Positions 6,336 to 42,581 of a stretch of DNA of 64,000 nt are shown one piece after another. Both the position numbers and the translations under genes were made by a program. Positions within the stretch are counted from its first letter, which is position 1; every line of letters starts with the position of its first letter. The notes beneath the pieces are model-generated. The model had not been told where the DNA came from. It was given only the letters and a program-made list of their open reading frames with translations, and ran no database searches. Source of the stretch: Eledone cirrhosa (Eukaryota); assembly GCA_964016885.1 (NCBI GenBank), contig OZ024741.1, positions 302,188,001 through 302,252,000 of the forward strand, given 5' to 3'.

Positions 6336-6461
6336 TATACTTATCCAAGTACCCTGGGCAATGTAGTTTCAGAATATATATGATCATGGGGGTCTATCTC
6401 CTAAACCATAGGAGTTCGTGAACAAACAAACAGACAGGAACTACAACTTTATATATATAGA
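6336..6461 (-). mobile_element. Inverted 5' fragment of the Helitron-like element at 6542
   Basis: Near-exact reverse complement of 6542-6660. Confidence 0.7.
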
Positions 6462-6489
6462 TGTGTGTGTGTGTGTATATGCATGTATG

Positions 6490-6541
<52 letters not shown>

Positions 6542-7080
6542 TCTATATATATAAAGTTGTATTTCCTGTCTGTTTGTTTGAACTCCTATGGTTTTGGAGA
6601 TAGACCCCCATGATCATATATATTCTGAAACTACATTGCCTAGGGTACTTGGATAAGTATATTTCATTTTAATCAAAGGGTACCCCGGGGGCACAAACCC
6701 ATGCTGAAAATGTTTTCCCTTCAATTTATATCAAATTTAAACCATAGGTAAATGACAAGATATGATGCCTATTCACAAAATTTCAGCAAATTTCAATAAT
6801 ATTAAGACACCCAAATAGGGGTTAAACCCCCTATAGTGAAAATTTTGGCCAATAAATGCAACAAGATTTCACAAACTCCTCTTATGGTTTTGGAGAAAGA
6901 CCCCCATAACCATATATATTCTGAAACTACATTGCCCAGGGTACTTGGATAAGTATATTTCATTTTAATCAAAGGGTACCCTGGGGGCACAAACCCACAC
7001 TGAACATTTTTTCCCTTCAATTTATATGAAATTTAAACCATAGGTAAATGACAAGATATGAGGCCTATTCACAAAATTTC
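6542..7080 (+). mobile_element. Non-autonomous Helitron-like element with ~300-bp internal tandem repeat, truncated
   Basis: Starts A|TCTATATATATAAAG followed by TGTCTGTTTGTTTG, a typical animal Helitron 5' end; 6582-6785 recurs at 6875-7080; no 3' hairpin/CTAG seen. Confidence 0.5.
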
Positions 7081-7394
7081 TGCCAGGGCGTCTGTACTTG
7101 TAGATTTTTGTCTGGAACAGGTAGAGCTCCTCTGTAGCACTGCAAGGCCAGAGACCTATCGAAGTTATCCATAGGCCCTGGACAGAAAGCCCTCCTGAAC
7201 AGACTGGTCAGTTCGTCCTCGATGCCTAGAGTTTCCTCGAGAACGTAGTCGGACTTTTCCTCCACTAATCCCCTATAGAATGTCGAGGTGGAGTCTCCAC
7301 TGTTTGCCGTTTCCGCTTGGTAGAGGGCGGTAAGCGCCTGAAGGCACTCGAGGTGCCAGGCGCCCATTTTCGGTCTTTGCTTGACCCAGGACTG
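7081..7394 (-). mobile_element. Tx1/L1-like LINE ORF2 C-terminal fragment
   Basis: QSWVKQR...FYRGLV...GPMDNFDRSLALQCYRGALPV matches the ORF at 26367-27173. Confidence 0.85.
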
Positions 7395-7445: not shown

Positions 7446-7486
7446 TACTCTGATGATCTGCTGCTTGGATGAAACGGTTGTTAGTA
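7446..7486 (+). ncRNA. Degenerate type I hammerhead ribozyme (Penelope pLTR-like)
   Basis: TACT-CTGATGA-TCTG ctgct TGGA T-GAAA-CGGTTG-TT-AGTA: 4-bp stem I, intact core boxes, wobble-rich stems II and III. Confidence 0.5.
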
Positions 7487-7675: not shown

Positions 7676-7711
7676 TCTTCTGATGAAGGACTGGCGTCCG
7701 AAACGTTAGGA
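7676..7711 (+). ncRNA. Minimal hammerhead-like motif (Penelope pLTR-like)
   Basis: TCTT-CTGATGA-A-GGAC tggc GTCC-GAAA-CG-TT-AGGA; perfect stem II, weak stem I. Confidence 0.5.
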
Positions 7712-10072: not shown

Positions 10073-13000
10073 ATCATCATCAGGTTTAGCGTCCGTGTTC
10101 CATGCTTGCATGGGTTTGGACGGGGGTTTTCCCACTTGAGGCAAGAGTGGTTGTCTTGCTCGCATAGGACTGTCTGGCGGGTTTTCTACAGTTGGATGCC
10201 CTTCCTAACACCAACCACATTTACAGTGTGGGGCTGGGAGGTTTTTACCGTGTTGCCTACACGGCCACATTTACAGCGTGGACTGTGTGTTTTTTTGTCG
10301 TGACACCTACACGATCTCATTTGTTTCGACCTGGATGTTGTGGGACCAACATAACTGTACATTGAAAGGGGCGGTGTGGATGGGGTGGAGGTGGTGGGAC
10401 GGGGGGGTGTTTTGATAGAGATGCCTACTAACTGTAGTAGGTTTTTACTTTGTATTTAGGTAAGGCGGGTCTTCTCTATTACTGAGTACCGCCAAAGGTC
10501 TCGGTCCAGTGACATTGTCTTGGAGAGGTGTAAGCGTGTGAGGTCGGAATTTATCAGCTCGTCCCATGTTTTTCTGGGTCTGCCTACTCCGTGGCTACCG
10601 TCTATCTTTATTGCCCTGCACTTTGTTATACAGCTGTCGTCTTTCATGCGCATCACGTGACCGTACCAACGTAGCCTTCTCTCAAGTAAACAACATCTGA
10701 TCCCTCTTATTTCTAATTTTTTCCTTAGTTCGTTTATGCTTTGCCGTTCACGTATATTACTATTGCACATCCAGCGGAGCATGCAAGCTTCGTTCCTCTC
10801 TAGTCTGCGTATATCCTCTGCACACAATGCCCATGTCTCACTGCCATGCAGCATTGCTGTTCGTATGCAGGCATCGTATAACCTGCCTTTCATTTTTAGG
10901 GAGAACCCTCTAGCGGCTAATAGTGGTATAAGCTCTCTGAACTTTTTCCATCCTGTTCTGACTCTAGCTACTGTACTTTCAGAGCACCCTCCACCACTGC
11001 TGATTTGGTCACCCAGGTAACGGAAAGTGTCCACTATTTCTATAGAACTATCTGAGCAATAGAAGGAGCTAGTATCCTCTGGGCACATGCTACTTATTGC
11101 ACCTGAGCATCGGCGACATGTAAAATCTATGTTCTTAGTTAGCTTACCTGTGATCCCACTACATCTTTTATGCACCCATACTTTGCATTTGGGACATAAA
11201 ATGGAGTTTCTACCTACGCCTTTCCTACACACTGAGCATGGCCATTTCCCAGATGGGACTGCCGCCATATTTTCTTTCCTACAAACTAGAACTTTTGTCT
11301 TAGCCAGGTTAATTTTAAGGCCTTTTGATTCTAGGCCGTGCTTCCATGTTTGGAATTTCTTCTCTAGTTCGGTCATTGATTCAGCTATGAGCGTTAGATC
11401 ATCTGCGTATAGGAGTTCCCATGGGCAGCCGGTCTTGAACTCCTCTGTTATAGCCTGAAGGGCAATAATAAATAGTAAGGGGCTAAGAACAGAGCCCTGA
11501 TGGACACCAACTTTTACGCTAAACTCTTCACTATATTCGTTGTTAATTCTAACCTTACTGACTGTTTCTTTATACATGGCTTGTATAGCTCGCACAAGCC
11601 ATTCGTCAACACCTAGTTTTCTAAGAGCCCACCAGATAATGGAACGGGGGACTCTGTCGAAGGCTTTCTCCAAGTCGACGAAAGCTAAGTATAGGGGTTT
11701 ACTTTTAGCTAGGTACTTCTCCTGTAGTTGTCGTACAATGAAAAGAGCGTCTGTGGTACTTTTGCCTGACACAAATCCGAACTGCATTTCATCTAGATCA
11801 ATTCTCTCTCTGATTAGTTGCGCTATTACTTTTTCCGTGACCTTCATGACCTGGTCGATTAATTTAATGCCTCTATAGTTACTCCTATCTAGGGCATCTC
11901 CTTTTCCCTTATAGCAGTTAACGATGATGCTGCTACGCCAGTCCTTCGGAACAACCCCATTCTGTACGACTTGGTTTACTATCCGGGTGACCATGGTGTG
12001 TCCCACCGAACCAGATGCCTTCAGCATCTCAGCAACTATTTCCGAAGGACCAGCCACCTTACCCGTCTTCATATCTTTGATTGCCTTGCTTATTGTACTA
12101 CCCTGGACTAACACTGCTGGTCCCTCTATTGGGTCGATGTGGGGGAGACTGTCTTTCTCCCATTTGTTCTCCTCATTTAGAAGCCTTTCGTAGTGACACT
12201 TCCAAGCTACCTTCTTATCAGCGTCGGTGATGGCAAGTATGCCATCATCGTTAAGCACACACTTCTCCCCGACAATATCACGGTTTTCCTTGACACATTG
12301 CCTGGCAATCCTGAACACCTCACGTTTTTGGTCCTCACGTTGTAGAACATGCTTGAACTTTCTTTCCTCTGCTTCCCTTCTTGCGAAGTACACTTGTCTC
12401 CTAGCTTCCCTCCTGGCTACCTGATAGTCTTCTCTACTTCCCCCATCCCGCCATGCTTTCCAAGCCTGCTTTTTGGCCTTAATTGACTCCTCCACCTTAC
12501 TGTTCCACCACCATGTTACTCTCCTCCTACCTACAGGCCTGCTCCAGCCACAGACTTCGTCTGCCGCCATCAGCAGGTTTGCTCTCAGGAATTCCCACTG
12601 TTCCTCTATATTATACGACTCTAATTGCTCTTCCTTACTGTCGAAAGCGTCAAGTAATATGCTTTGAAATTTATTTCTGGCTATGGGGTCCTTTAGCTTC
12701 CATATTTTTCTCCTGAGGATAGTCCTCTTCCGCTGTCTAGTACGTCTCGTCCTGACTATGAGGTCGCTAATTATCAGTCTATGTTGGGAGGTGAATTCTT
12801 CATGGGGGAGGGATTTAGTGTTAACAACAGACACTCTGTCACGTCTTCTGGTAAGGATATAATCTACCTAGCTTGTGTGTTCCCCCGATCTATAGGTGAT
12901 CAAGTGATTGTCTCGTTTTTTGAAGTTAGTGTTACAGATAGTTAAGTTATTTGCGTCGCAGAATTCCAGGATTCTGGAGCCTTCCTCATTTCTAGTACCG

Positions 13001-13855
13001 AACCCATAGCCTCCATGGATTCCGTCATAGCCGTCACAATGCTGTCCAACGTGACCATTTAGGTCGCCTGCAATAACTATATAGTCACTGTCGGTTATTT
13101 GGGAGGTAGCGAGCATCAGTGTCTCGTAGAATCTGTCTTTTATAGCACCGGGCAGTCCGGATTGTGGTGCGTACGCAGATATTACTGTCACCGTAGTTTT
13201 ATTGAGGACAAGTCTTATTTTAATTATTCTGTCGTTCACTCTATTTACGTCTATTATCTTATCTGCCCACTTTTCTGCTACCATGATTCCTACCCCACCC
13301 AACCCATTGTCATTTCCCACCCAGAAAAGCTTATAGCATCGTTCTTTACCCACGATGAATCTAGCCGACCCTCCCCTCCACCTGGTCTCTTGAATACAAC
13401 AAACATCGACCTCCTTACGTTCAAGCATTTCTACAACCTCGTTAGAGCGACCCTTTAAGGTGCCTACATTCATGGTACCAACTCTGAAGTTTTGGATTGC
13501 GTTTGGAGGGTGGGGGGCGGGGGGAGATGGGGTTATGTTAGCCATCCTGGGCCGAAACAAGGCGGAGTGCTTGCATTCTCGTCCACGAGGTGAATTTGTC
13601 TTTATCTTTGGCATTGTCGCTGAGCGTCCACATTTTTCTCTCTTCAACTCTCCAGAATTCCGTAGTCTATCCATCATATCGAAAAGCAACCAGTTAGGCG
13701 ATAGTATGGGCCTCTGACTTATGATTGGTCCACGTAATAATGGTGGTGCGTGGGGGCGGGTGGGAGGGACGATGTGTTGTTAGCGAGAATGTAAGGTTTA
13801 AGATAAGATCGCTGTATTTTGGGCATAATTTAACAAACGAAAATACAAGATTTGA
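10073..13855 (-). mobile_element. RTE-clade LINE, subfamily A, near full length
   Basis: Single APE+RT frame (GTMNVGTL, CIQETRW, AGDLNGHVG; DLEKAFDRV, GVHQGSVLSP, YADD), 3'UTR and (GAT)n tail; microsatellite on both sides. Confidence 0.95.
10456..13689 (-). pseudogene. RTE APE-RT polyprotein interrupted by one nonsense codon
   Basis: ORFs 12868-13689 and 10456-12834 are in frame; TAG at 12868-12870 replaces CAG (HTSQVDY in the 30.6-33.6 kb copy). Confidence 0.9.
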
Positions 13856-15494: not shown

Positions 15495-18400
15495 GCTGTG
15501 TGCAAGAGACTAGATGGGGAGGAGGGGTCTGCTAGAGTCCTTGTAGGAAAAAGCCAGTGCTACAAATTTTTCTGGGTGGGAAATGACGATGGGATGGGTG
15601 GTGTAGGTTATACTATTAGCTGACAAGTGGGTAGATAAAGTAATCTCAGTGTACAGGGTAAATGCAAGAATCATTAAACTCAGACTAGTCCTGAATAAGA
15701 CAATTACCACAATAATATCAGCTTACGCACCCCAATCGGGGCTGCCAGACGAACTTAAGGATAGGTTTTACGAGTCCCCTAATACACACTACTGCTCTAA
15801 CAGACGACAAGGACTTCCTAATCATTGCAGGAGATTTTAACGGACATGTAGGTAAACACTGCGACGGCTTCAATAGAGTACATGGAGGCCATGGAGTTGG
15901 CACAAGGAATGAGGAAGGATTCAGACTTCTAGAATTCTGCGACGCCAATGACATGTCGATATGTAACACAAACTTTAAAAAACCCGACAACCACCTGATC
16001 ACCTATAGATCAGGGGAGCACTCTAGTCAGTTAGATTTTATCCTCATCAGAGGACGTGACAGTATGGACGGTCGTAAACACAAAAGCCTTCCCTAGTGAG
16101 GAATGTACATCCCAACATAGCTTAGTTGTCAGCGACCCTCACGGTCAGAACTAGACGAGCCCTGAAACAGAGGCCCAACCTGGAGAAGAAAGATCTGGAA
16201 GCTGAAAGTCCCCCTCAACCAGTAACAGATTTAAAGATATTTTACTCAACGCCTACGACAGTAAAGAAGAACAGATAGAGACATTTAACGTAGAAGAGAA
16301 CTGGGAGTTCCTAAAAAATAACTTACTAGAGGCGACGGATGAGGTTTGTGGCTGGAGTAAGACCTCAAGCAGGAGGAGAGTGACTTGGGTGGTGGAACAA
16401 TAAGGTAGATGAAGCAGTCAAGGCCAAGAGACAGGCATGGAAAGAATGGAAGAACGGGGGGGAGCAGGGTACATTACATAGAGACCAAGAGGGGAAGCTA
16501 GGCGACAAGTATACTTAGCTAGGAGGGGAAGCAGAGGATAGAAAATTCAAGCATGTTTTACAACGTGAGGACCAGAAACAGGAGGTATTCAAGATTGCGA
16601 GGCAGTGTGTCAGAGATAGTTTGTGATGTCATTGGAGAGAAGTGTATCCGGAATGATAAAGGTGAGCTTGCCCTCACAAGTGCTGAGAAGAAAGATGCAT
16701 GGAAGAGTCATTATGATAGATTACTAAATGAGGAGAATGCATGGGGAAGAAGAGACCCTACCCCACGTAGACCCCTATAGAGGGACCAGCAGTACAAGTC
16801 AGCGGCAGCGTAGTAAGTAAGGCAATCAGAGATATGAAGATAGGGAAGGCAACCGGTCCATCGGGTATAGCTGCCGAGATGCTGAAGGCATCTGGGTCTG
16901 TAGGTCACACTATAACCACACGTATCGTTAACCAGGTAATACTAGAGGGGGCCATACCAAAAGATTGGTGCAGTAGCATCATTGTCAACTGCTACAAAGG
17001 TAAAGGCGATGCACTAGATAGAGGAAACTATAGAGGTATAAAGTTGATGGACCAGGTCATGAAAGTAACAGAAAGAGTTATAGCACAGCTGATTAGGGAC
17101 CGGGTGAATATAGACGAGATGCAATTTGGGTTTTGTACCAGGGAAAGGCACCACTGATGCGCTCTTCCTTGTGAGGCAATTACAGGAAAAGTACCTAGCT
17201 AAAAGTAAGCCACTCTACTTGGCATTTGTCGACCTTGAGAAAGCTTTTGACAGAGTTCCACGTGCAGTAATCTGGTGGGCTCTTAGAAAACTAGGAGTAG
17301 ATGAATGGCTTGTGAAAGCGGTACAAGCCATGTATAGGGGAGCAGTCAGCAAAGTTAGGATTGGCAATGAGTATAGCGAGGAATTTAGCGTACAGGTTGG
17401 GGTCCACCAGGGCTCTGTTCTTAGCCCTCTCCTGTTCATCATAGTCCTGCAGGCAATAACGGAGGAGTTTAAGACCGGATGCCCATGGGAACTCCTGTAT
17501 GCTGATGACCTCGCACTCATAGCTGAATCTATGGTAGAACTAGAGAATAAATTCCAAACCTGGAAGCAGGGACTAGAGAGAAAGGGCCTCAAAGTCAACA
17601 TGACAAAGACTAAGGTCCTTATAAGTAGACGAGAAAACAGAACCCAGATCCCCTCAGGGAAATGGCCTTGCTCAGTATGTAGGAAAGGTGTAGGTAGGAA
17701 CTCCATTCTTTGCCCCAAATGCAAACAATGGGTACACAAGAGATGTAGCGGGATCTCAGGAAGCTTAATTAAGAATGTAGGATTCACATGCAGCAGCTGT
17801 GCTGAAACAGCAAGCAAACAGCCACAGAAACAAGTACCACCAATCTCTGGGAGGGCCCTGTAGAAACAGTAGACAGCTTCTGCTACCTAGGTGACCGAAT
17901 TAGCAACGGAGGTGGGTGCTCAGAAAGTACAATAACTAGGGTAAGAACGGGATGGAAGAAGTTTAGGGAACTACTACCACTGCTAGCTGCAAAAGGCTTC
18001 TCCCTCAGAATGAAAGGCAGACTGTATGATGCGTGTATCCGAACAGCGATGTTGCATGGTAGTGAGACCTGGGCGCTGAAGGTGAAGACTTACGTAGATT
18101 AGAGAGAAACGAAGCCTGCATGCTCCGATGGATGTGTAACAGTAATATACGTGAACGACAAAGCATAAATGAATTGAGAGAGAGACTGAGCATAAGAGGA
18201 ATCAAATGCTGCGTGCAGGAGAGGCGGTTACGCTGGTAATGGACATGTGATGCGTATGAAGGATGACAGCTGCATAAAAAGGTGCAGAGCACTAGAAGTT
18301 GATGGAAACCGCGGAGTGGGGAGACCCAAGATGACTTGGGATGAGGTGATAAAAGCCGACCTTACCCAACTACACCTCTCAAAGTCAATGACACACGACC

Positions 18401-18754
18401 GTGACTTCTGGCGTCACGCAGTAATACAGGGTACCCGACCTCCCATGGGTACATGCTGAAGCATATAAACAATATGCCCCCCCCCACCGCAAGGTGGTCG
18501 TGGAGGTGCCACGGCAAAAAAGCACCCAGCCCACACTGTAAAGTGGACGTGTAGGCGCCACGAAAAAGCACCCAGCACTCACTGTAAATGAGGTTGGTGT
18601 TAGGAAGGGCATCCAGCTGTAGAAATCAAGCCAGATCAGTTCCTGTATGAGCAAGGCATGGTCAGCCGACCAGGCACTGCCCACAACAGGACAACCCGTC
18701 TCACCCATGCTAGCGTGGAAGAACGGACGTAAAACGGTGATGATGATGATGATG

Positions 18755-18756
<2 letters not shown>
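15495..18756 (+). mobile_element. RTE subfamily B copy with many single-base indels
   Basis: Near-identical reverse complement of 60467-63725; APE and RT pieces in shifting frames; (GAT)n tail. Confidence 0.95.
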
Positions 18757-18820
<64 letters not shown>

Positions 18821-18821
18821 G

Positions 18822-18852
<31 letters not shown>

Positions 18853-18927
18853 GTATATATATATGTATATATATATGTATATATATATGTATATGTATAT
18901 ATATATGTATATATATATATGTATATA

Positions 18928-18976
<49 letters not shown>

Positions 18977-19020
18977 GTATATATATATGTGTATTTATAT
19001 ATATATATATATGTATATAT

Positions 19021-19080
<60 letters not shown>

Positions 19081-19665
19081 GTATATATATATGTATATAT
19101 ATATGTATATGTATATATATATGTATATATATATGTATATATATATGTATATATATATGTATATATATGTATATATATATGTATATATATATATGTATAT
19201 ATATATATGTATATATATATATATGTATATATATATATGTATATATATATATGTATATATATGTATATATATATATGTATATATATGTATACATATATAT
19301 GTATATATATATATGTATATATATATATGTATATATATGTATACATATATATGTATATATATGTATACATATATATGTATATATATGTATACATATATAT
19401 GTATATATATATGTATACATATATATGTATATATATATGTATACATATATATGTATATATATATATATATGTATATATATGTATGTATATATATGTATAT
19501 ATATATATGTATATATATGTATATATATATATATGTATATATATATATGTATATATATATATGTATATATATGTATACATATATATGTATATATATATAT
19601 GTATATATATGTATACATATATATGTATATATATATGTATATATATGTATATATATATATGTATA

Positions 19666-19704
<39 letters not shown>

Positions 19705-19718
19705 ACATATATATGTAT

Positions 19719-19778
<60 letters not shown>

Positions 19779-19793
19779 ATGTATATGTATATG

Positions 19794-19844
<51 letters not shown>

Positions 19845-19857
19845 GTATATATATATG

Positions 19858-19902
<45 letters not shown>

Positions 19903-19911
19903 GTATATATG

Positions 19912-19942
<31 letters not shown>

Positions 19943-19943
19943 G

Positions 19944-19976
<33 letters not shown>

Positions 19977-19989
19977 GTATATATATATG

Positions 19990-20038
<49 letters not shown>

Positions 20039-20117
20039 GTATATATATATATGTATATATATATGTATATATATATGTATATATATATATATATGTATAT
20101 ATATATGTATATATATA

Positions 20118-22243
20118 TTGGAATAAATGCTCTGAAATAGCGATATATATGTGAATATAGACATAGAATATTCGAAAATATTCTGTATGTTTATAATAAA
20201 CATTTTGAAGACCTAATCGCTATAGAATAGAATACGTCACGTATTACAATTAGATTCTCGATAAAAGCAAGGGAAGTAATCTACGCGTTTCATTCTTATT
20301 AGAAATCTTCAGGACTACATATCCAGTGCTTTTATCAAGAATGACACAGCTAGAGACTTATAGAATACTTAGCTGTGTACATGAACTGGTTTGAAAGAGC
20401 GGTTGCCGGTCCGGCAGAAATTAGAAATTGGAATAAATGCTCTGAAATAGCGATATATATGTGAATATAGACATAGAATATTCGAAAATATTCTGTATGT
20501 TTATAATAAACATTTTGAAGACCTAATCGCTATAGAATAGAATACGTCACGTATTACAATTAGATTCTCGATAAAAGCAAGGGAAGTAATCTACGCGTTT
20601 CATTCTTATTAGAAATCTTCAGGACTACATATCCAGTGCTTTTATCGAGAATGACACAGCTAGAGACTTATAGAATACTTAGCTGTGTACATGAACTGGT
20701 TTGAAAGAGCGGTTGCCAGTCCGGCAGAAATTAGAAATTGGAATAAATGCTCTGAAATAGCGATATATATGTGAATATAGACATAGAATATTCGAAAATA
20801 TTCTGTATGTTTATAATAAACATTTTGAAGACCTAATCGCTATAGAATAGAATACGTCACGTATTACAATTAGATTCTCGATAAAAGCAAGGGAAGTAAT
20901 CTCTAATTGTAATACGTGACGTATTCTATTCTATAGCGATTAGGTCTTCAAAATGTTTATTATAAACATACAGAATATTTTCGAATATTCTATGTCTATA
21001 TTCACATATATATCGCTATTTCAGAGCATTTATTCCAATTTCTAATTTCTGCCGGACCGGCAACCGCTCTTTCAAACCAGTTCATGTACACAGCTAAGTA
21101 TTCTATAAGTCTCTAGCTGTGTCATTCTCGATAAAAGCACTGGATATGTAGTCCTGAAGATTTCTAATAAGAATGAAACGCGTAGATTACTTCCCTTGCT
21201 TTTATCGAGAATCTAATTGTAATACGTGACGTATTCTATTCTATAGCGATTAGGTCTTCAAAATGTTTATTATAAACATACAGAATATTTTCGAATATTC
21301 TATGTCTATATTCACATATATATCGCTATTTCAGAGCATTTATTCCAATTTCTAATTTCTGCCGGACCGGCAACCGCTCTTTCAAACCAGTTCATGTACA
21401 CAGCTAAGTATTCTATAAGTCTCTAGCTGTGTCATTCTCGATAAAAGCACTGGATATGTAGTCCTGAAGATTTCTAATAAGAATGAAACGCGTAGATTAC
21501 TTCCCTTGCTTTTATCGAGAATCTAATTGTAATACGTGACGTATTCTATTCTATAGCGATTAGGTCTTCAAAATGTTTATTATAAACATACAGAATATTT
21601 TCGAATATTCTATGTCTATATTCACATATATATCGCTATTTCAGAGCATTTATTCCAATTTCTAATTTCTGCCGGACCGGCAACCGCTCTTTCAAACCAG
21701 TTCATGTACACAGCTAAGTATTCTATAAGTCTCTAGCTGTGTCATTCTCGATAAAAGCACTGGATATGTAGTCCTGAAGATTTCTAATAAGAATGAAACG
21801 CGTAGATTACTTCCCTTGCTTTTATCGAGAATCTAATTGTAATACGTGACGTATTCTATTCTATAGCGATTAGGTCTTCAAAATGTTTATTATAAACATA
21901 CAGAATATTTTCGAATATTCTATGTCTATATTCACATATATATCGCTATTTCAGAGCATTTATTCGAATTTCTAATTTCTGCCGGACCGGCAACCGCTCT
22001 TTCAAACCAGTTCATGTACACAGCTAAGTATTCTATAAGTCTCTAGCTGTGTCATTCTCGATAAAAGCACTGGATATGTAGTCCTGAAGATTTCTAATAA
22101 GAATGAAACGCGTAGATTACTTCCCTTGCTTTTATCGAGAATCTAATTGTAATACGTGACGTATTCTATTCTATAGCGATTAGGTCTTCAAAATGTTTAT
22201 TATAAACATACAGAATATTTTCGAATATTCTATGTCTATATTC
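20118..22243. repeat. 310-bp hammerhead-ribozyme tandem array 1 (retrozyme/pLTR-like) with internal inversion at ~20901
   Basis: ~2.5 units with HHR on - (20276-20318, 20586-20628), then ~4.3 units with HHR on + (21148, 21458, 21768, 22078). Confidence 0.95.
21148..21190 (+). ncRNA. Type I hammerhead ribozyme (representative unit of array 1)
   Basis: GTAGTC-CTGAAGA-T TTCT aata AGAA T-GAAA-CGCG-TA^GATTAC; stem I extended by a 16-bp helix ATTCTCGATAAAAGCA/TGCTTTTATCGAGAAT beyond an internal loop. Confidence 0.88.
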
Positions 22244-22316
22244 ATATATATATATATATATGTATATATATATGTATATATATATATATATGTATATATA
22301 TATGTATATGTGTATA

Positions 22317-22387
<71 letters not shown>

Positions 22388-22497
22388 GTATATATGTATA
22401 TGTATGTATATATATATGTATATATGTATATGTATATATATATGTATATATATATGTATATATGTATATATATGTATGTATATATATGTATATGTAT

Positions 22498-22537
<40 letters not shown>

Positions 22538-22544
22538 GTATATG

Positions 22545-22593
<49 letters not shown>

Positions 22594-23116
22594 GTATATA
22601 TATATATGTATATATATATATGTATATGTGTATATGTATATATATGTATATATATGTATATATGTATATGTATATATGTATATGTATATATGTATATGTA
22701 TATGTATATATATATATGTATATATGTATATGTATATGTATATATATATATGTATATATATATATGTATATATGTATATATATATATGTATATATATATA
22801 TGTATATATGTATATATGTATATGTATATATGTATATATGTATATATATATATGTATATATATATATATGTATATGTATATATGTATATATATGTATGTA
22901 TATGTATATGTATATATGTATATGTATATATGTATATGTATATATGTATATATATATATGTATATGTATATATGTATATGTATATATGTATATGTATATA
23001 TGTATATATATATATGTATATATGTATATATGTATATATATATATGTATATATATATATGTATATATATATATGTATATGTATATATATATTTGTATATA
23101 TGTATATATATATGTA

Positions 23117-25493
23117 TTACTCTTTTACTCTTTTACCTGATTCAGCCATCCGGCTGAGGCCATGCTGGGCCACCGCCCTTGTTGCTACACATTTTATCTC
23201 CAGCCTGTATAGGTTGGCCACTGGTGTAAGAGGGAGTTTGTTGCTGCTGCCCTTGGGTTTCCCTCGTTTCTTGCTGTGGGCTCATCCGAGATCCTGGATA
23301 ACAAGGCGTCGAGATGTTTCTTAAAGACATCCACCTCCACGTCATGCAAGTCTCTCAGATGCCTCGGCAGCCCGTTGAAGAGTTGAGGGCCCTTGAATCC
23401 GAGGCTATTGCAATACCTGCTCCTTATTCTAGATGTTGAAGACGGGACCTTTGGCACCACACAGTGACGTCCTGCTCGGCGGTTGGTCCAGCTCCCAATT
23501 CGTATCTCTCCCGTCTTCGCTCCAAGGAGTAGAGGTTCAGTTCCTTTAGCCTCTCCCAGTAGCTTGTCTCCCTCATCTTGGCAATCCTCTTGGTGTAGCT
23601 TCGCTGGATTGCCTCAAGCTCCGTGGTTAGTTTGACACTATGGGGTGACCACAACTGGGAGCAGTAGTCCAGGCGGCTTAGGACAAATGTCTTCCATAGT
23701 GTCAACATGGTGTCTCGATCTCTTGTCCGGAAAGTCCTCAAGATCCAGCCAGCGAGTCGTCTGCACATTGTCGCCATTTTCATGATGTGTGAAGAAAAAG
23801 ATGCATCATCGCTCATGTCTATGCCCAGGTCTCGTATTGATTTTGACACGGGGATATCGGTCCCTCCTGGTCCTGTGTAGTTGTGTTCCACTATATTTGT
23901 GTTTGCAGGTTTGTTTGGAGGTTTGTATTGTAGTGTTTGGAATTTGCCAGCATTAAACTGCATGTTGTTTTCTTCCGCCCATTTGTATATGGCATCCAGA
24001 TCCTGCTGTAAAAGGGCAGCGTCAGCCTGGTTTTTGATTGCCTGTGCTACCTTAGTGTCATCAACATAGCTAGTGAGGGATGTTGTTGTATGTACTACAG
24101 AGGGCATGTCTGAGAGAGCCATAAAAACAGTAGTGGTCCCAGGACTGTCCACTGCGGCACCCCACTTGTTATTGGTGTTTCCTTTGAGAGGGCCCCATTT
24201 GCTGCGACTGCCTGGTTCTGTCCCTTAGGAAGCAATGCAGCCACTCACCTACTTTTCCAGTTATGCCGAGTCCGTGTAGTTTGTGACATATCATTCCGTG
24301 GTCAACCTTGTCAAAGGCCTTCGCAAAGTCAAGATATATCACGTCCACATGTGAGCTGTCTAGTAGTTGTTTCAGTACCCAGTCGTAGTGATGTAGCAGC
24401 TGTGTAAGGCAGCTTCTTCCTGGGCAGAAGCCATGTTGCGTGCTAGTCAGGCGGTCATTTTCCTCGAGGAAAGTGATCAGTTTCTTTCTTTGTGATGACT
24501 AGCTCCATGACCTTACTGATATGCGACGTCGGGGAGACTGGCCTATAATTTTTGGCCTCCGCTCTGCTACCTCCTTTATGGATAGGGAATATTGTGCCTT
24601 CTTTCAGCTCCTTGGGTAGTACACCGCTAGCCAAGGAGCTTCTGAAGAGCATCTTCAGTGGAGTTGCTAAGGCCCGCTTACATATTTTTAAGAGAACTGC
24701 TGGGAATCCATCAGGTCCAGCAGCCGAGTCTATTCTAATTTCATCAATGGCGTACACCACATCCTCCTCCGTCATTTCTATGTGGTTGATGGTGTTGTGG
24801 CATCAAAGAACTCCTCTGGTTTCGTTATTTGCATGTGCCTCAGTGGACATGTGAACACACTTTTGTACTGTTCGTTCAGTATTTCAAATATCTCTTGGGG
24901 GTTTTCGGTTAATGAACCGTCCGTATGGAAGAGTGGCCCAATCTTGCAGTGTACTGAGGCAGTTTCTTTTGCAAATTTAAAGAAGGCCTTAGGGTTTGTT
25001 TTAATGTTTTCTATGGCCCTGTTCTCTTTCTTTGCCCTCTCATTCTCATGGGAAAGCTTGAGTGCAATCTCGGTGCCAAGTAATGCACATTTCAAATAGG
25101 ATTCCTTCTTGTTTTTGTTTTGTTGACTATTTAACTGGTTTGAGAGTTTGGTTCTACGTCTCATAAGGATTTTCCTATCTCTGGGAATAAATTTTTGTGT
25201 CTGTTTGCCTCTTTCTCCGGGACAAACTTTTTGCATATAGTGTGTATCGTTGTCATGAAGTGTTGAAATTGTGTGTTAGTGTCTTGTGTGGCGGTGTTTT
25301 CACTCCATGTTTGCTTCCGGATTTCTCTCTTAATCTTTTTCCAGTTAGCCTTGTAGAAGTCAAGGCTGGATAACGTCCCGGAGCTTCTTGGTGGTTTTGT
25401 CTCTGTTGGTTCTCTTGGACCACATATCATTAGCTCTACTAAGTTATGATCTGAGAGAATTGTTGGTGTCACATTTACATTGTGGATGAGCAC
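23117..25493 (-). mobile_element. CR1-like LINE, 5'-truncated and frameshifted
   Basis: LSDHNLV, AGPDGFP, NYRPVS, QHGF, LDFAKAFDKVDH, YVDD, RDLGI, LDYCSQLWSP, LYSLERRRERY; 8-bp repeat tail (AAAGAGTA)n. Confidence 0.9.
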
Positions 25494-30221: not shown

Positions 30222-33200
30222 ATCATCATCATCATCATCAACGTTTAACGTCCGTGTTCCACGCTTGCATGGGTTTGGACGGGGGTAGTCCCACTTGAGG
30301 CAAGAGTGATTGTCTTGCTCGCATAGGACTATCTGGCAGATTTTCTACAGTTGGATGCCCTTCCTAACACCAACCACATTTACAGTGTGGGTCTGGGAGG
30401 TTTTTACCGTGTTGCCTACACGGCCACATTACAGCGTTGACTGTGTGTTTTTTTGTCGTGACACCTACACGATCTCATTTGTTTCGGCCTGGATGGTGCG
30501 GCACCAACATAACTTTACATAGAACGGGGTGGTGGGACGGGGTGTATTTTGTTAGAGATGCCTACTGGCTGTAGTAGGTTTTACTATGTATTTAGGTAAG
30601 GTGGGTCTTCTCTGTTACTGAGTACTGCCAAAGGTCTCGGTTCAGTGACATTGTCTTGGTGAGGTGTAAGTGTGTGAGGTCGGAGTTTATCAATTCGTCC
30701 CAGGTTTTTGTAGGTCTGCCTATTCCGTGGCTACCGTCTATCTTTATTTCCCTGCACTTTGTTATACAGCTATCGACTTTCATGCGCAACACGTGTCCAT
30801 ACCAACGTAGCCTTCTCTCGAGTAAACAACATCTGATCCCTCTTATTTCTAATTTTTTCCTTAGTTCGTTTATGCTTTGCCGTTCACGTATATTACTGTT
30901 ACACATCCAGCGGAGCATGCAAGCTTCGTTCCTCTCTAGTCTGCGTATATCCTCTGCACACAATGCCCAGGTCTCACTGCCATGCAACATTGCTGTTCGT
31001 ATGCAGGCATCGTACAACCTGCCTTTCATTTTTAGGGAGAACCCTTTAGCAGCTAATAGTGGTATAAGCTCTCTGAACTTTTTCCAACCAGTTCTGACTC
31101 TAGCTACTGTACTTTCAGAGCAATCTCCCCCACTGCTGATTTTATCGCCCAGGTAACGGAAGCTGTCCACTATTTCTATAGAACCCTCTGCGCAATTGAA
31201 AGAGCTAGTATTTTGTGGGCACTTGCTGCTACTTATTGCACCAGAGCACCGGCCACATGTAAAATCTATGTTCTTAGTTAGCTTACCTGTGATCCCACTA
31301 CATCTTTTATGCACCCATACTTTGCATTTAGGACAAAAAATGGAGTTTCTACCTACGCCTTTCCTACACACTGAGCATGGCCATTTCCCAGATGGGACCG
31401 CCGCCTTATTTTCTTTCCTACAAACTAGAACTTTAGTCTTAGCAAGGTTAATCTTAAGTCCTTTTGATTCTAGGCCGTGCTTCCATGTTTGGAATTTCTT
31501 CTCTAGCTCGGCCATTGATTCCGCTATGAGTGTCAGGTCGTCTGCGTATAGGAGTTCCCATGGGCAGCCGGTCTTGAACTCCTCTGTTATAGCCTGAAGG
31601 GCAATAATAAATAGTAGGGGGCTGAGAATAGAGCCCTGATGGACGCCAACTTTTACGCTAAACTCTTCACTATATTCGTTGTTAATTCTAACCTTGCTGA
31701 CTGTTTCTTTATACATGGCTTGTATAGCCTTCACAAGCCATTCGTCAACGCCTAGTTTTCTAAGAGCCCACCAGATAATGGAGCGGGGGACTCTGTCGAA
31801 GGCTTTCTCCAACTCGACAAAAGCTAAGTAGAGGGGTTTACCTTTAGCTAGGTACTTCTCCTGTAGTTGTCGTACAATGAAAAGAGCATCTGTGGTACTT
31901 TTGCCTGACACAAACCCGAACTGCATTTCATCTAGGTCAATTCTCTCTCTGATTAGTTGCGCTATTACTTTTTCCGTGACCTTCATGACCTGGTCGATTA
32001 ATTTAATGTCTCTATAGTTACTCCTATCTAGGGCGTCTCCTTTACCCTTATAACAGTTAACGATGATGCTGCTATGCCAGTCCTTCGGAACAACCCCATT
32101 CTGTACGACTTGGTTAACTATGCGGGTGACCATGGTGTGTCCCACCGTGCCAGATGCCTTCAGCATCTCAGCAACTATTTCCGAAGGCCCAGCCGCCTTA
32201 CCCGTCTTCATATCCTTGATTGCCTTACTTATTATACTCCCCTCGACTAACACTGCTGGTCCCTCTATTGGGTCGATATGGGGGAGACTGTCTTTCTCCC
32301 ATTTATTCTCCTCATTTAGTAGCCTTTCATAGTGACCCTTCCAAGCTACCTTCTTATCAGCGTCGTTGATGGCAAGTATGCCATCATCGTTAAGTACACA
32401 CTTCTCCCCGACAATATCACGGTTTTCCTTGACGCATTGCCTAGCAATGCTGAACACCTCACGTTTTTGGTCCTCGCGTTGTAGAACATGCTTGAACTTT
32501 CTTTCCTCTGCTTCCCTTCTTGCTAAGTACACTTGTCTCCTAGCTTCCCTCCTGGCCACTTGATAGTCTTCTCTACTTCCCCCATCCCGCCATACTTTCC
32601 AAGCCTGCTCTTTGGCCTTAATTGACCCCTCCACCTTACTGTTCCACCACCATGTTACTCTCCTCCTGCCTACAGGCCTGCTCCAGCCACAGACTTCGTC
32701 TGTCGCCATCAGCAGGTTTGTTTTCAGAAATTCCCACTGTCCCTCTATATTGTCCGACTCTAAATGTTCTTCCTTACTGTCGAAAGCATCAAGTAATATG
32801 CTTTGAAATTTATTTCTGGCTGTGGGGTCCTTTAGCTTCCATATTTTTCTCCTGAGGATAGTCCTCTTCTGCTGTCGAGTACGTCTCGTCCTGACTATGA
32901 GGTCGCTAATTATCAGTCTATGTTGGGAGGTGCATTCTTCATGGGGGAGGGATTTAGTGTTTACAACAGACACTCTGTCACGTCTTCTGGTAAGGATATA
33001 ATCTACCTGGCTTGTGTGTTCCCCGGATCTATAGGTGATCAGGTGATTGTCACGTTTTTTGAAGTTAGTGTTACAGATAGTTAGGCTATTTGCATCACAG
33101 AATTCCAGGATTCTGGAGCCTTCCTCATTTCTAGTACCAAACCCATAGCCTCCATGGATTTCGTCGTAGCCGTCACAATGTTGTCCAACGTGACCATTTA

Positions 33201-33742
33201 GGTCGCCTGCAATAATTATATAGTCACTGTCGGATATTTTGGAGGTAGTTAGCATCAGTGTCTCATAGAATCTGTCTTTTATAGTGCCGGGCAGTCCGGA
33301 TTGGGGTGCGTATGCAGATATTACTGTCACCGTAGTTCTATTGAGGACAAGTCGTATTTTAATTATTCTGTCGTTCACTCTATTTACGTCTATTATCTTA
33401 TCTGCCCACTTTTCTGCTACCATGATTCCTACTCCACCCAGCCCATCGTCGTTTCCCACCCAGAAAAGCTTATAACATCGTTTTTTACCCTCAATGAATC
33501 TAGCAGACCCACCCCTCCACCTGGTCTCTTGGATACAACAAACATCGACCTCCTTACGTTCAAGCATTTCTACAACCTCGTTAGCGCGACCCTTTAGGGT
33601 GCCTACATTTACGGTACCAACTCTGAAGTTTTGGATTGCGTTTGGAGGGTGGGGACGGCGGGAGATGGGGTTATGTTAGCCGTCCGCGGTCGAAACAAAG
33701 AGGAGTGCTCGCATTCTCGTCCACGAGGTGAATTTGTCTTTA
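30222..33742 (-). mobile_element. RTE subfamily A copy, slightly 5'-truncated
   Basis: Highly similar to 10073-13603; (GAT)n tail. Confidence 0.95.
30592..33567 (-). CDS. RTE APE endonuclease-reverse transcriptase ORF (991 aa; frame open further upstream)
   Basis: Uninterrupted APE, RT (YADD), PHD-like finger and C-terminal RLRWYGHV; RT motif reads ELEKAFD instead of DLEKAFD, so activity is doubtful. Confidence 0.85.
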   Translation of the reverse strand: MLERKEVDVCCIQETRWRGGSARFIEGKKRCYKLFWVGNDDGLGGVGIMVAEKWADKIIDVNRVNDRIIKIRLVLNRTTVTVISAYAPQSGLPGTIKDRFYETLMLTTSKISDSDYIIIAGDLNGHVGQHCDGYDEIHGGYGFGTRNEEGSRILEFCDANSLTICNTNFKKRDNHLITYRSGEHTSQVDYILTRRRDRVSVVNTKSLPHEECTSQHRLIISDLIVRTRRTRQQKRTILRRKIWKLKDPTARNKFQSILLDAFDSKEEHLESDNIEGQWEFLKTNLLMATDEVCGWSRPVGRRRVTWWWNSKVEGSIKAKEQAWKVWRDGGSREDYQVARREARRQVYLARREAEERKFKHVLQREDQKREVFSIARQCVKENRDIVGEKCVLNDDGILAINDADKKVAWKGHYERLLNEENKWEKDSLPHIDPIEGPAVLVEGSIISKAIKDMKTGKAAGPSEIVAEMLKASGTVGHTMVTRIVNQVVQNGVVPKDWHSSIIVNCYKGKGDALDRSNYRDIKLIDQVMKVTEKVIAQLIRERIDLDEMQFGFVSGKSTTDALFIVRQLQEKYLAKGKPLYLAFVELEKAFDRVPRSIIWWALRKLGVDEWLVKAIQAMYKETVSKVRINNEYSEEFSVKVGVHQGSILSPLLFIIALQAITEEFKTGCPWELLYADDLTLIAESMAELEKKFQTWKHGLESKGLKINLAKTKVLVCRKENKAAVPSGKWPCSVCRKGVGRNSIFCPKCKVWVHKRCSGITGKLTKNIDFTCGRCSGAISSSKCPQNTSSFNCAEGSIEIVDSFRYLGDKISSGGDCSESTVARVRTGWKKFRELIPLLAAKGFSLKMKGRLYDACIRTAMLHGSETWALCAEDIRRLERNEACMLRWMCNSNIRERQSINELRKKLEIRGIRCCLLERRLRWYGHVLRMKVDSCITKCREIKIDGSHGIGRPTKTWDELINSDLTHLHLTKTMSLNRDLWQYSVTEKTHLT

Positions 33743-38609: not shown

Positions 38610-39027
38610 AATGTAGGAGGTGAGTTTTATTGTAGTACAATAAAGCAATGCAGATATCGGTTAAGAAGCACTCTACAGTTTGTAGGACTGGAGTATACAT
38701 AATATATAAGAACAAAAGATGGTTAAAAGAGTTCCATGTATTTTATTATGAGCATTTCAAAAACAAATATCATCATGCAATAATATTTGTGTTTTCATCA
38801 GATAAAACAGGAAGACATGATATGAAGGTTAAAAAACACTTGTGGATAGTTCAGTTTTAAATCAACATAAACTGAACTATCCACAAGTGTTTTTTAACCT
38901 TCATATCATGTCTTCCTGTTTTATCTGATGAAAACACAAATATTATTGCATGATGATATTTGTTTTTGAAATGCGCATAATAAAATACATGGAACTCTTT
39001 TAACCGTCTTTTGTTCTTATATATTAT
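38610..39027. mobile_element. Inverted twin of an HHR-bearing pLTR-like element
   Basis: Arms 38699-38857 and 38869-39027 are near-perfect inverted repeats; the left arm has ~85 bp extra; one HHR per arm. Confidence 0.85.
38919..38985 (+). ncRNA. Type I hammerhead ribozyme with long stem II (mirror copy on - at 38741-38807)
   Basis: TTTTAT-CTGATGA-AAACACAAATATTATT gcat GATGATATTTGTTTTT-GAAA-TGCGCA-TA^ATAAAA. Confidence 0.85.
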
Positions 39028-40090: not shown

Positions 40091-40260
40091 TATGTATATA
40101 TATGTATGTATATATATATGTATGTATATATATATATGTATGTATATATATATGTATGTATATATATATGTATATGTATATATATATATGTATGTATATG
40201 TATATATATATATGTATATGTATATATATATGTATGTATATATATATATATGTATATATA

Positions 40261-42581
40261 CAATATTAAATAAATGGAAACTATATTTATAAAACCATAT
40301 TTATTTCATTATATATATTTCAGGGATATCATATTAACAATATGCTATGCCTTCCTCAGACAAAATACAATATAAACAGTTTTATATATAAATAGATTCG
40401 ACATACCGTAACAACATCGACTTGTATTTGAAAAGGTTGATTTGGCAGTGAAAAAATTGTACACAGAGAGAAAGAAAGAGAGAAAAAAGGAAAGAAAGAC
40501 AGAAAACGAAGAAAAAGAAGAAAAAGAAGAAATGCATGGAACAAAATAGAGAGATGGAAAGATAGATAAAGAGAAGAACTTCATGTAAAGAAACAGAAAG
40601 ATATATATATATATATAGAGAGAGGAAATAGAGATAGATACATATATATAGAAAACTAGGTAGTGGGACGTCTGTTGAGTAAACGTATCAATGATACATT
40701 TATTTATTTATTTATCTCTAGTATTAATGTAAGGGAGATATATGGAGAGAAACCAGCTGTTATATAGAGAAAGAAAAAATTTAAAAATAGCCAGACATAT
40801 GCGAGGCGTAAAAAACCCTATGTTTTAATGTAGAGGTATTAGTATTTATAAAAACCAGCCACTATATTGTAAATATCAGTATTCCTGAATGAGACATGTA
40901 TCCATAATGTGTGAAAATTAATGATCTTATGTTTAGTTTTTAAAAAAAATTCATATGTTTATGTGATAACTACAAACATCTATGTGAATCTACATGATCA
41001 ACTCTGCAAACCCTAAGTTCACGGAAAACATTCCCAATGTGGTATAAAAATTTAAGTATACATATATGTGTATATATATACACACAAATATATATAGAGT
41101 CAATATTAGTATTCCTGTCTTTACTCTACAAGATTATCTATCAAGCAGAAATAGAGAGCAGATTTCAATATACTAATAAAAATATATATCCGAAACAAAA
41201 CTAAAAAATAACAATAATAATAATAAGTAATAATAAAATAGAAAACTAAAAAATATTACGAAAGAATATTACATATTAAAAATATTACATATTAAAAAAT
41301 TTACATATTAAAAATATTAAAAATAAAAAATATTAGAAAATACTACAATAATAAAAATAAAAATAAACCACAAAGATCAACCCTTCAAAATTAATTGACA
41401 ATATATTGCCAAGTTCATTATAAGCATCAGAGTCGAAAAACAGATAAAGCCAAAAATTATCTATCAAATCGCATCTAGCAAAGATCATTTCAGAAAGTTT
41501 AGGATGCCCAATTTGGTCTACATGTGTTCTTATATTTAATATAGAAGTTTATCTAGTGTAACGTTTATTCGAAATATTTGGAGCATCAACTTTTAGCGTA
41601 GCTTAATTTTTCATGAAGAATGTTTAAATAAAAATAAAATAAAAATAAAAAGAATAAAAAGAAGGAATCAAAAATTTATCGGCTAGTTTCCCAAATAATT
41701 ATAAATCAACCTAAATATACTACATTTTAAATTTAAATTTATATTTAAACGTTGAGTTTAATCTATGTTTGCAACAACTGAATAAATTTGTCCGTAGATT
41801 AAGGGAATTTTTAGATTTTAGTATAAAGAATATCTCCTCTGCGCAGAGGTCACATGTCTCAGAGGATGAATTAAAAGGAATCCCTCTTGAGACTATATTC
41901 CAAGCCGTCGAATATCTAACGTTATCTAGCTTAAGTTGCCAGAGTACACCTGATAGTGCCGTTGAAGATTTTTTGCTTGGATCTGTGAAAGAATTCTTGT
42001 GGTTATTATAGCGAAGTTTAAATTCCGTCGATGTGGAACCGACGTAGTTAAAAGAATTAGAGTCAGTATTAACATTACAATTGTATACTATATTTTTAAC
42101 TAAGCAGTTGTTATTTAACGGACATTTAGATCTATCTCTACAGTTACATTTGTTAACTTGTATATTATTTATGCTATTATCACTAGGTTTTAAGTTCCTA
42201 TTATTTATTCTATTAATATTTTGTGCTAAATTTTTGGTGGATGAGTAGGTTAATTTTATTGTATGTCTATTGAAAATTGAGTGATACCTATGTGTTCTAG
42301 GGAAGCGATTATCAAGAGCTTTAAAAAATAGTTTAGCGATGTGGGTTTTAATGTTTAGTGAGAAAGGGGGGGCAAACCAAATTATGTTCCTAGTTCTATT
42401 TCTTTTTTGGCCTTTGGAATTATTGTAATGCTTTCTATTATAGTTGTTAAGGTTGTTGCCGTAATTAAAAAAGTTGTTACTTTGTTTAGTTTGTCTATCA
42501 TTATCTATGTACACAAACTTATCAGCATATCCTGCTCCAGCTAATGCTTCATTGTAGTATTGGGCTTTTTCGTCGAAAAAT
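40261..42581 (-). mobile_element. Penelope-like retroelement (Naiad-type), 5'-truncated, long AT-rich 3' region
   Basis: GIY-YIG ORF plus ~1.45 kb downstream sequence, bounded by TA microsatellites. Confidence 0.8.
41720..42580 (-). CDS. PLE RT-thumb end, Zn-finger linker and GIY-YIG endonuclease (N-terminally truncated)
   Basis: [24 protein letters not shown]...CPLNNNC, NIVY...[23 protein letters not shown]...CKH; frame open to the microsatellite junction. Confidence 0.85.

Follow-up and report, generated by a model that had tools for sequence, protein, structure and literature searches.

The DNA analysed here is a stretch of 64,000 nucleotides from the genome of Eledone cirrhosa (contig OZ024741.1, positions 302,188,001 to 302,252,000 of the forward strand), referred to below as the window. 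It contains long (TA)n tracts separated by LINE fragments in which AP-endonuclease, RT and PHD domains occur, and Pfam matches were found for 10 of the 18 ORFs scanned. Young LINE copies, in which a PHD finger follows the RT, occur at 10456-13779, 30592-33675 and 60773-63895 (minus strand) and at 15495-18737 (plus strand); one pair among them is 99% identical across 3.2 kb.

Two arrays of a 310-nt monomer lie in this setting, and are listed with the other features in Table 1. Tandem Repeats Finder placed the 310-nt arrays at 20117-20902 (2.5 copies), 20902-22253 (4.4 copies) and 45233-49124 (12.6 copies). The first two are the arms of array 1, which are inverted about 20901/20902 with their ribozyme-sense 5′ ends facing each other. 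The preliminary description had counted 2.5 units pointing left and 4.3 pointing right from a junction near 20901, and the arms indeed hold 2.53 and 4.33 units, arranged head-to-head in (TA)n. The 3′ limit of the right arm is at 22244, or at 22253 when a single mismatch within an AU run is tolerated.

Table 1. Features of the window. Monomer positions are numbered from the predicted cut site.
Feature	Coordinates	Strand	Remarks
Left (TA)n target tract, array 1	18755..20116	.	TATG-biased on the plus strand
Array 1, left arm	20117..20901	-	785 nt, 2.53 units of the 310-nt monomer
Array 1, extension present in the left arm only	20117..20151	-	26-35 nt, fits a Penelope 'tail'
Second left-arm hammerhead copy (predicted)	20254-20342	-	Private C-to-U change, U-G pair remains
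Left-arm hammerhead copy (predicted)	20564..20652	-	
Array 1, head-to-head junction	20897..20909	.	1 nt common to both arms
Array 1, right arm	20902..22244	+	1343 nt, 4.33 units
Predicted type I hammerhead with stem I extension, first right-arm copy	21124..21212	+	Repeated at +310, +620 and +930
Elements of this hammerhead	C3 21154; N7 21158; U10.1.U11.1 21161/21174		Predicted cut after 21184
Fixed difference, stem I extension	21133 (monomer 259)		A-U pair (array 1) vs G-U pair (array 2)
Fixed difference, N7	21158 (monomer 284)		A in array 1, U in array 2
Fixed difference, loop II	21168 (monomer 294)		U in array 1, C in array 2
Fixed difference outside the ribozyme	21394 (monomer 210)		
Right (TA)n target tract, array 1	22254..23117	.	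TATG-biased, 88 TATG vs 0 CATA
Head-to-head palindrome	38611..39027	.	Hammerhead in each arm, 88-nt left extension
5′-truncated Penelope-like element	40255..42579	-	In (TA)n beside array 2; context only
Predicted type I hammerhead in the Penelope-like 3′ region	Core 40359	-	Predicted cut after 40310; N7 = G, palindromic AU stem III
Penelope-like ORF end with GIY-YIG-like domain	41723-42559	-	
Array 2	45233..49124	-	12.55 identical units of the 310-nt monomer
Head-to-head palindrome, second hammerhead family	52088..52666	.	54-nt left extension
Second copy of the second-family palindrome	54589-55203	.	Different centre
Tailed palindrome	56738-57130	.	112-nt spacer; hammerhead motif not found by motif scan

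Across the junction of array 1, 756 of 758 positions are mirror-paired. This symmetry, together with the difficulty of assembling palindromes, could point to a DNA fold-back or an assembly chimera. However, the lengths of the arms, their end points, their private changes and their flanks are all unmirrored; the TATG bias lies on the same strand in both flanks, and the right flank is therefore no mirror of the left. These asymmetries argue that the inversion is not a fold-back artefact, and we consider this the least probable of all the explanations weighed here. Snap-back of the left cDNA was ruled out, since the right arm is longer than the left. Read-through of 20117-21659 would yield a hairpin of 758 bp with the 756 pairs counted above, from which small RNAs directed against the monomer family could arise.

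Publications are cited here for the sections of them that were covered. The hammerhead core consensus was taken from PMC3088659. The core (C3 U4 G5 A6 N7 G8 A9 / G12 A13 A14 A15.1 / U16.1 H17) is complete in all 18 full copies of the monomer, with H17 being A. Stem I has 6 bp, followed by an internal loop and an 18-bp extension; stem II has 4 bp and the palindromic stem III has 2 bp. Stem positions are paired in 100% of 90 cells, stems I and II are present in the predicted fold, and the topology is that of type I, with stem I open-ended and stems II and III closed. The pair 10.1-11.1, which is usually G-C, is absent: a U.U mismatch opens stem II in both arrays. U.U at this position occurs in natural hammerheads and is the best tolerated mismatch (PMC3088659). 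Stem III alone gave no fold (0.0 kcal/mol), and between two copies it pairs (-9.5). Animal hammerheads typically have a short, palindromic helix III, which favours dimeric cutting, and in natural hammerheads the loop contacts matter for activity (PMC4209133).

The Rfam scan of the window gave nothing at the gathering score. The best sub-threshold match was to Hammerhead_HH9 (RF02275), whose gathering score of 52 exceeds the values found for array 1 (17 bits, E 0.31) and array 2 (19.2 bits, E 0.021); the identification of the ribozyme therefore rests on the core motif and the stems as read from the sequence. Hammerhead_HH9 shares the type I topology, the 6-bp stem I and the 4-bp stem II, whereas the stem III found here is far shorter. 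A hammerhead motif was not found on the antisense strand of the monomer. We note that isolated hammerhead-like cores occur at 7450 and 7680 (plus strand) and at 56359 (minus strand), and that the core at 7680 is similar to the minimal Penelope type, with an extra base after A9 and a G10.1-C11.1 pair.

The monomer has a GC content of 0.335, and its longest ATG ORF encodes 30 amino acids. It folds better than shuffled sequences, with a z score of -5.2 as a circle and -3.8 as a linear molecule, for which none of 100 shuffles was as good. Consecutive complete hammerhead motifs number two in the left arm, four in the right arm and 12 in array 2. Non-LTR retrozymes are defined by a tandem of two or more units of 150-450 bp that each carry a type I hammerhead, and by a GC content below 50% with neither a coding region nor LTR structure (PMC7229834; 10.64898/2026.07.22.740005). 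All of these features are present here, the primer-binding site and polypurine tract being left aside, and the copies appear dispersed, in that there are two separate insertions in the window, and 681 contigs of run X1 match the monomer, with ends that pass into different TA flanks. By this sequence definition the 310-nt repeat, with its predicted type I hammerhead, counts as a non-LTR retrozyme and represents a young family of a known class. It resembles the metazoan retrozymes described in the same two sources in its GC content below 50% (34% here), its single type I hammerhead per unit, its well-folded monomer, and its occurrence in a genome with Penelope-like elements; what sets it apart is the uncommon U10.1.U11.1 mismatch, and ends with a Penelope tail and alignment to the predicted cut site, insertion ends being left undescribed in the sections covered of those sources. 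Self-cleavage was absent for eight of nine predicted frog retrozymes (10.64898/2026.07.22.740005). An autonomous Penelope-like element would have an ORF with RT and GIY-YIG domains, which the monomer lacks. Satellite-like repeats with a hammerhead are also known from cricket pDo500 (PMC2837043) and salamander satellite 2, the latter having a short stem III and working as a dimer (both points from PMC7229834).

The monomer (21185-21494) was found in near-identical form in 20 runs, with 18 organism labels from 17 studies, on the basis of 65-96% of sampled words. Runs X7 and X20 each contain one cyclic contig, with depths of 34 and 3.6 respectively, against several hundred thousand summed in X1, which is possibly derived from the same source as the window. 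The raw reads of run X21 gave zero matches in 1938 million letters, a search that does not count as a test. None of the listed runs containing the monomer was an RNA run, which speaks neither for nor against its expression as linear or circular RNA. For the presence of the monomer under so many organism labels, trace DNA is as likely an explanation as horizontal transfer. Ribozyme pattern scans of metagenome_contigs, viral_contigs and genome_contigs gave zero loci.

Arrays 1 and 2 differ at four fixed sites, as had been noted at first by eye: N7, loop II, an A-U to G-U change in the stem I extension, and one site outside the ribozyme. The differences separate all six covering copies of array 1 from all 12 complete copies of array 2, which are identical. 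Array 1 also carries private substitutions at 20337, 20718 and 21966, each confined to a single copy, two of them CpG transitions and none listed in the preliminary description, while array 2 has none; the difference between three and zero (P 0.044) is a weak hint that array 1 is the older. Within each array there is one haplotype in all copies, and in array 1 this haplotype spans both arms. The N7 = A allele of both arms has a frequency of 16% in run X1, and the array 2 alleles at 21133 and 21394 are each below 2% there, although 21394 is near the edge of the compared stretch. These observations support the earlier suggestion that each array was amplified from its own variant monomer, and we propose that descent from a single template haplotype explains why each array is uniform.

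The preliminary description also read the four differences as a sign of selection on RNA structure, and here the evidence is mixed. Of all possible single substitutions in the monomer, 80% leave the core and pairs intact when loop II is treated as neutral; all four differences are of this kind, which gives P 0.41. Restricting the comparison post hoc to the three changes in the ribozyme and its extension gives P 0.026. Covariation was counted in eight rows (all six array 1 copies and two of the 12 from array 2): none of 30 pairs was altered on both sides, but only three of the rows are distinct and the comparison has no power. Given P 0.41 and the lack of any two-sided pair change, selection cannot be deduced from the four differences, which are variants that happen to be tolerated and are too few to show it.

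Run X1 bears on the same question. In a variant survey in which four of the 24 listed runs were compared with one monomer, the sites varying at 2% or more among the 681 X1 contigs were N7 (U 84%), 10.1 (A 18%) and two sites in loop II (75% and 23%). All four are tolerated, with P about 0.008 given their placement within C3-N17, and this favours constraint on the core. The A variant at 10.1, which restores an A-U pair, is also found in run X7. We note that the four sites fall within 12 nt (21158-21169), with P 8e-5 for C3-N17; the cluster could reflect tuning of the cutting rate, a mutation hot spot or a bias of contig building, which loses isolated variants and could favour clustered ones in X1. 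Overall, four of 31 ribozyme positions are variable compared with at most four of 221 outside (Fisher P 0.009, from X1, X7, X20 and array 2, with three unplaced differences counted as outside). The ribozyme is thus enriched for variable sites; variation does not avoid it, and concentrates at its tolerant positions.

Strong purifying selection that keeps substitutions out of the core and pairs, with the four differences as its proof, comes out at slightly below an even chance when these results are put together. It fits the lack of changes that break the core or a pair in the three distinct rows of the window, the tolerated X1 variants with their restored pair at 10.1, and the precedent of cricket pDo500 (PMC2837043). 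It fits poorly with the result for the four window differences, with the enrichment of variation in the ribozyme, with the possible clustering bias of the X1 contigs, and with a contig of run X20 in which a stem I pair is broken, though this has a depth of only 3.6 and may be an error. The ribozyme region of pDo500 is better conserved than the remainder of the repeat and shows compensatory changes; the 310-nt family has the opposite pattern, its few variants being gathered in the ribozyme without any compensatory change among them. Selection may plausibly act on the core, and the variants packed at N7, 10.1 and loop II may tune the cutting rate and thereby the length of arrays.

The ends of the arrays were compared with the predicted cut site. 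The RNA-sense 5′ end of the left arm is the first base after the predicted cut, with an ambiguity of 1 nt, and that of array 2 is at the cut site itself (49122, with a TA shared with the flank). The right arm begins at monomer position 28, that is, 27 nt past the cut. Two of the three 5′ ends thus lie within a 3-nt window at the cut site, for which the chance is 2.8e-4, or 5e-4 if array 2 could be joined only at the 37 TA steps of the monomer; the test is post hoc and uses three ends, the cut site being the only position for which there was a prior reason. That two separate insertions start at the predicted cut suggests that RNA that was already cut was likely copied by a Penelope-like element. 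Among the six of 49 loose-end rows listed for run X1, none starts an array at the cut site, a row at monomer position 3 being uninformative. Insertions of retrozymes that start at the cut site or are tailed were not reported in the literature searched, which was mostly open and without supplements; the supplementary figures of PMC7229834 and PMC11167929 could show such junctions.

At the other end, the left arm stops at monomer position 165, array 2 at 170 and the right arm at 130 or 139. In run X1, among the same six of 49 rows, the passage from monomer to TA run falls at 139 (eight contigs), 167 (four) and 170 (two); these ends form two clusters and match those seen in the window. The left arm of array 1 consequently has an extension that the right arm lacks. 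A tail in Penelope-like elements is one-sided, about 30-40 nt long and bounded by two internal start sites (PMC11167929; 10.1101/2021.04.23.441226); the extension here has this form, with a length of 26-35 nt. The insertion pattern is also that of Penelope-like elements, with an inverted, 5′-shortened, head-to-head copy in an AT-rich or (TA)n target; inverted 5′-truncated copies, tails and a preference for (TA)n are in print for these elements (10.1101/2021.04.23.441226; PMC3846280). The likeness to those that bear an endonuclease, with their inverted pLTR insertions, extends to a hammerhead upstream of the reverse-transcription start sites (PMC3846280; 10.1101/2021.04.23.441226; PMC11167929), while the array 1 family differs in being non-coding and multimeric and in having a 5′ end at the cut site.

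Twin priming yields inverted 5′ segments, and an ordinary LINE acting in this way on a single multimeric RNA could also give an inverted array; LINE ORFs with endonuclease and RT that appear intact are present in the window. The arms, however, do not abut on the RNA (165 against 28, requiring either an overlap of 137 nt or a gap of 173 nt), there is neither a poly(A) nor a LINE-like 3′ end, and the tail and the parallel palindromes are traits of Penelope. Twin priming is therefore very unlikely. A palindrome might alternatively be made by self-priming on an antisense transcript, as has been offered for head-to-head palindromes of rotifer Penelope elements (PMC3846280). An antisense template would have no reason to end at a sense cut site, and with no hammerhead motif found on the antisense strand we regard self-priming as still less probable.

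A Penelope-like element is present beside array 2, although it is 5′-truncated. The end of its ORF has a score of 0.96 to GIY-YIG clusters, which make up 12 of 30 Atlas matches (17 being unnamed), and PF01541 is found on 23% of the members. Across 80% of the ORF end, identity to a 534-residue protein is 43%, and RT motifs were read by eye in that protein; Pfam gave no family for either the ORF end or this homologue. No significant similarity was found between the 310-nt monomer and the 3′ region of the element, since 13 of 100 shuffles scored as high.

Four further tailed palindromes lie in or beside (TA)n, with one-sided extensions of 54-88 nt and hammerhead-like motifs in three of them. An arm of the palindrome at 38611 aligns with the hammerhead-bearing 3′ end of the Penelope-like element, with one of 100 shuffles scoring as high. 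The tailed palindromes and the truncated element together indicate that Penelope-like activity giving such a pattern is present locally. Where the palindromes carry hammerheads, in three cases, their arms begin some 60 nt 5′ of the core and hence on uncut RNA; they are like the anole system in this respect and unlike the retrozyme. We note that the core is about 63 nt from the centre in two unlike hammerhead families (38611-39027 and 52088-52666). The two second-family palindromes have identical outer ends and an identical 54-nt tail, the one at 54589 having a 45-nt restart; both of their left arms reach the same 5′ base, which is perhaps the transcription start. Rfam matches that would make the palindrome at 38.6-39.0 kb a miRNA fell below gathering and were rejected as hairpin artefacts. 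An older cluster of inverted and direct repeats surrounds a short TA tract at 6336-7083. The tail is on the left in all five head-to-head insertions (20117, 38611, 52088, 54589 and 56738), and the four flanks counted for arrays 1 and 2 are all TATG-biased on the plus strand; target cutting with a strand polarity is a possible reading of both.

We propose that array 1 was probably written into (TA)n by a Penelope-like enzyme acting in trans, on a sense RNA likely cut by the ribozyme at its 5′ end. Read-through transcripts of an array would first be cut at only some of their hammerheads: with a palindromic stem III of 2 bp, a hammerhead is predicted to depend on a second copy, and the U10.1.U11.1 mismatch should make cutting slower. 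The Penelope-like protein would then nick both strands of an AT-rich target, and reverse transcription would start within the RNA, at one AU-rich site some 130-139 nt beyond the cut and at another some 165-170 nt beyond it, which would produce the one-sided tail. Copying would halt at the 5′ end made by the ribozyme. For array 1, two cDNAs, one from each flank, would be joined by their 3′ ends, one of them losing 27 nt; for array 2, a single cDNA would be joined to the flank. The junction of array 1 would be explained by an inverted microhomology of 4-5 nt with two extra nucleotides, although such matches are common by chance. The presence of the minor X1 allele at N7 in both arms is expected if the template came from a single source. 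On AT-rich DNA, a purified Penelope-like protein of the anole both cuts and extends the two strands, and it uses two adjacent internal starts that bound the tail (PMC11167929).

Several observations count against this scheme. The anole protein needs no cutting in vitro, its main template is uncut RNA and no reads begin at the cut site (PMC11167929); the other hammerhead palindromes in the window likewise retain their hammerheads well inside the arm. A template of 12.55 units with 12 uncut hammerheads would demand either slow cutting or a later expansion at the DNA level, and any target-site duplication is unreadable in (TA)n.

The arrays could instead have grown after insertion, as satellites do, from one or two units expanded by unequal crossing-over or slippage (as proposed in 10.64898/2026.07.22.740005), in which case the uniformity of an array would say nothing about an RNA template. 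Such growth would preserve both ends and would account for uniformity without 12 uncut ribozymes, but the three private changes of array 1 have not spread beyond one copy each. We think this unlikely; since it leaves the ends and the inversion unexplained, it can only supplement copying from cut RNA.

A circular template, or cut monomers copied by template jumping, is a further candidate, the Penelope-like enzyme sometimes stopping at the ligation junction, which is the cut site. Circles have been proposed as the template (PMC7229834; PMC7761336), the circular monomer folds well (z -5.2, 100 shuffles), the arms, with two and four full laps, each finish at the cut site or close to it, and the 12 copies of array 2 are identical. 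Against this, a seamless 3′-5′ circle should offer the enzyme no reason to stop, all internal junctions are perfect, without the added bases that jumping might leave, and the numbers of laps were possibly altered after insertion. A circle is, in our assessment, unlikely, and a little more so than growth after insertion, and we retain a linear RNA with a ribozyme-made 5′ end as the more probable template, although the ends themselves would fit either a partly cut linear multimer or a circle with a stop at its junction.

Earlier publications already cover much of the context, namely the retrozyme class, its link to Penelope, the inverted arrangement and the action of selection on a hammerhead in a satellite. 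Selection is the claim of lower value, being expected, shown already for pDo500 and unproven here. Circles as template (PMC7229834; PMC7761336) and Penelope-like elements as partner have been proposed from co-occurrence and sequence kinship, and the retrozyme repeats themselves give no motif that indicates the partner (PMC7229834). The insertion ends are not described in the sections covered of PMC7229834 or 10.64898/2026.07.22.740005, and in the text of the latter that was covered the terms 'tail', 'cleavage site' and 'junction' have zero occurrences. Ends aligned to the cut site bear on the question of a circular or linear template. With slightly better than even confidence, we suggest that such ends directly record the retrozyme cycle, in which a Penelope-like enzyme in trans primes both strands and the hammerhead cut sets the point at which copying stops. 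A 5′ end at the cut site combined with a Penelope tail makes the questions of partner, of template and of sense or antisense countable in good assemblies. If this reading is true, the template for integration would be a cut linear RNA (or copying would stop at a ligation junction), in place of an antisense transcript or a circle that rolls freely; beyond what was seen in the one in vitro Penelope system, the hammerhead would gain a role in transposition.
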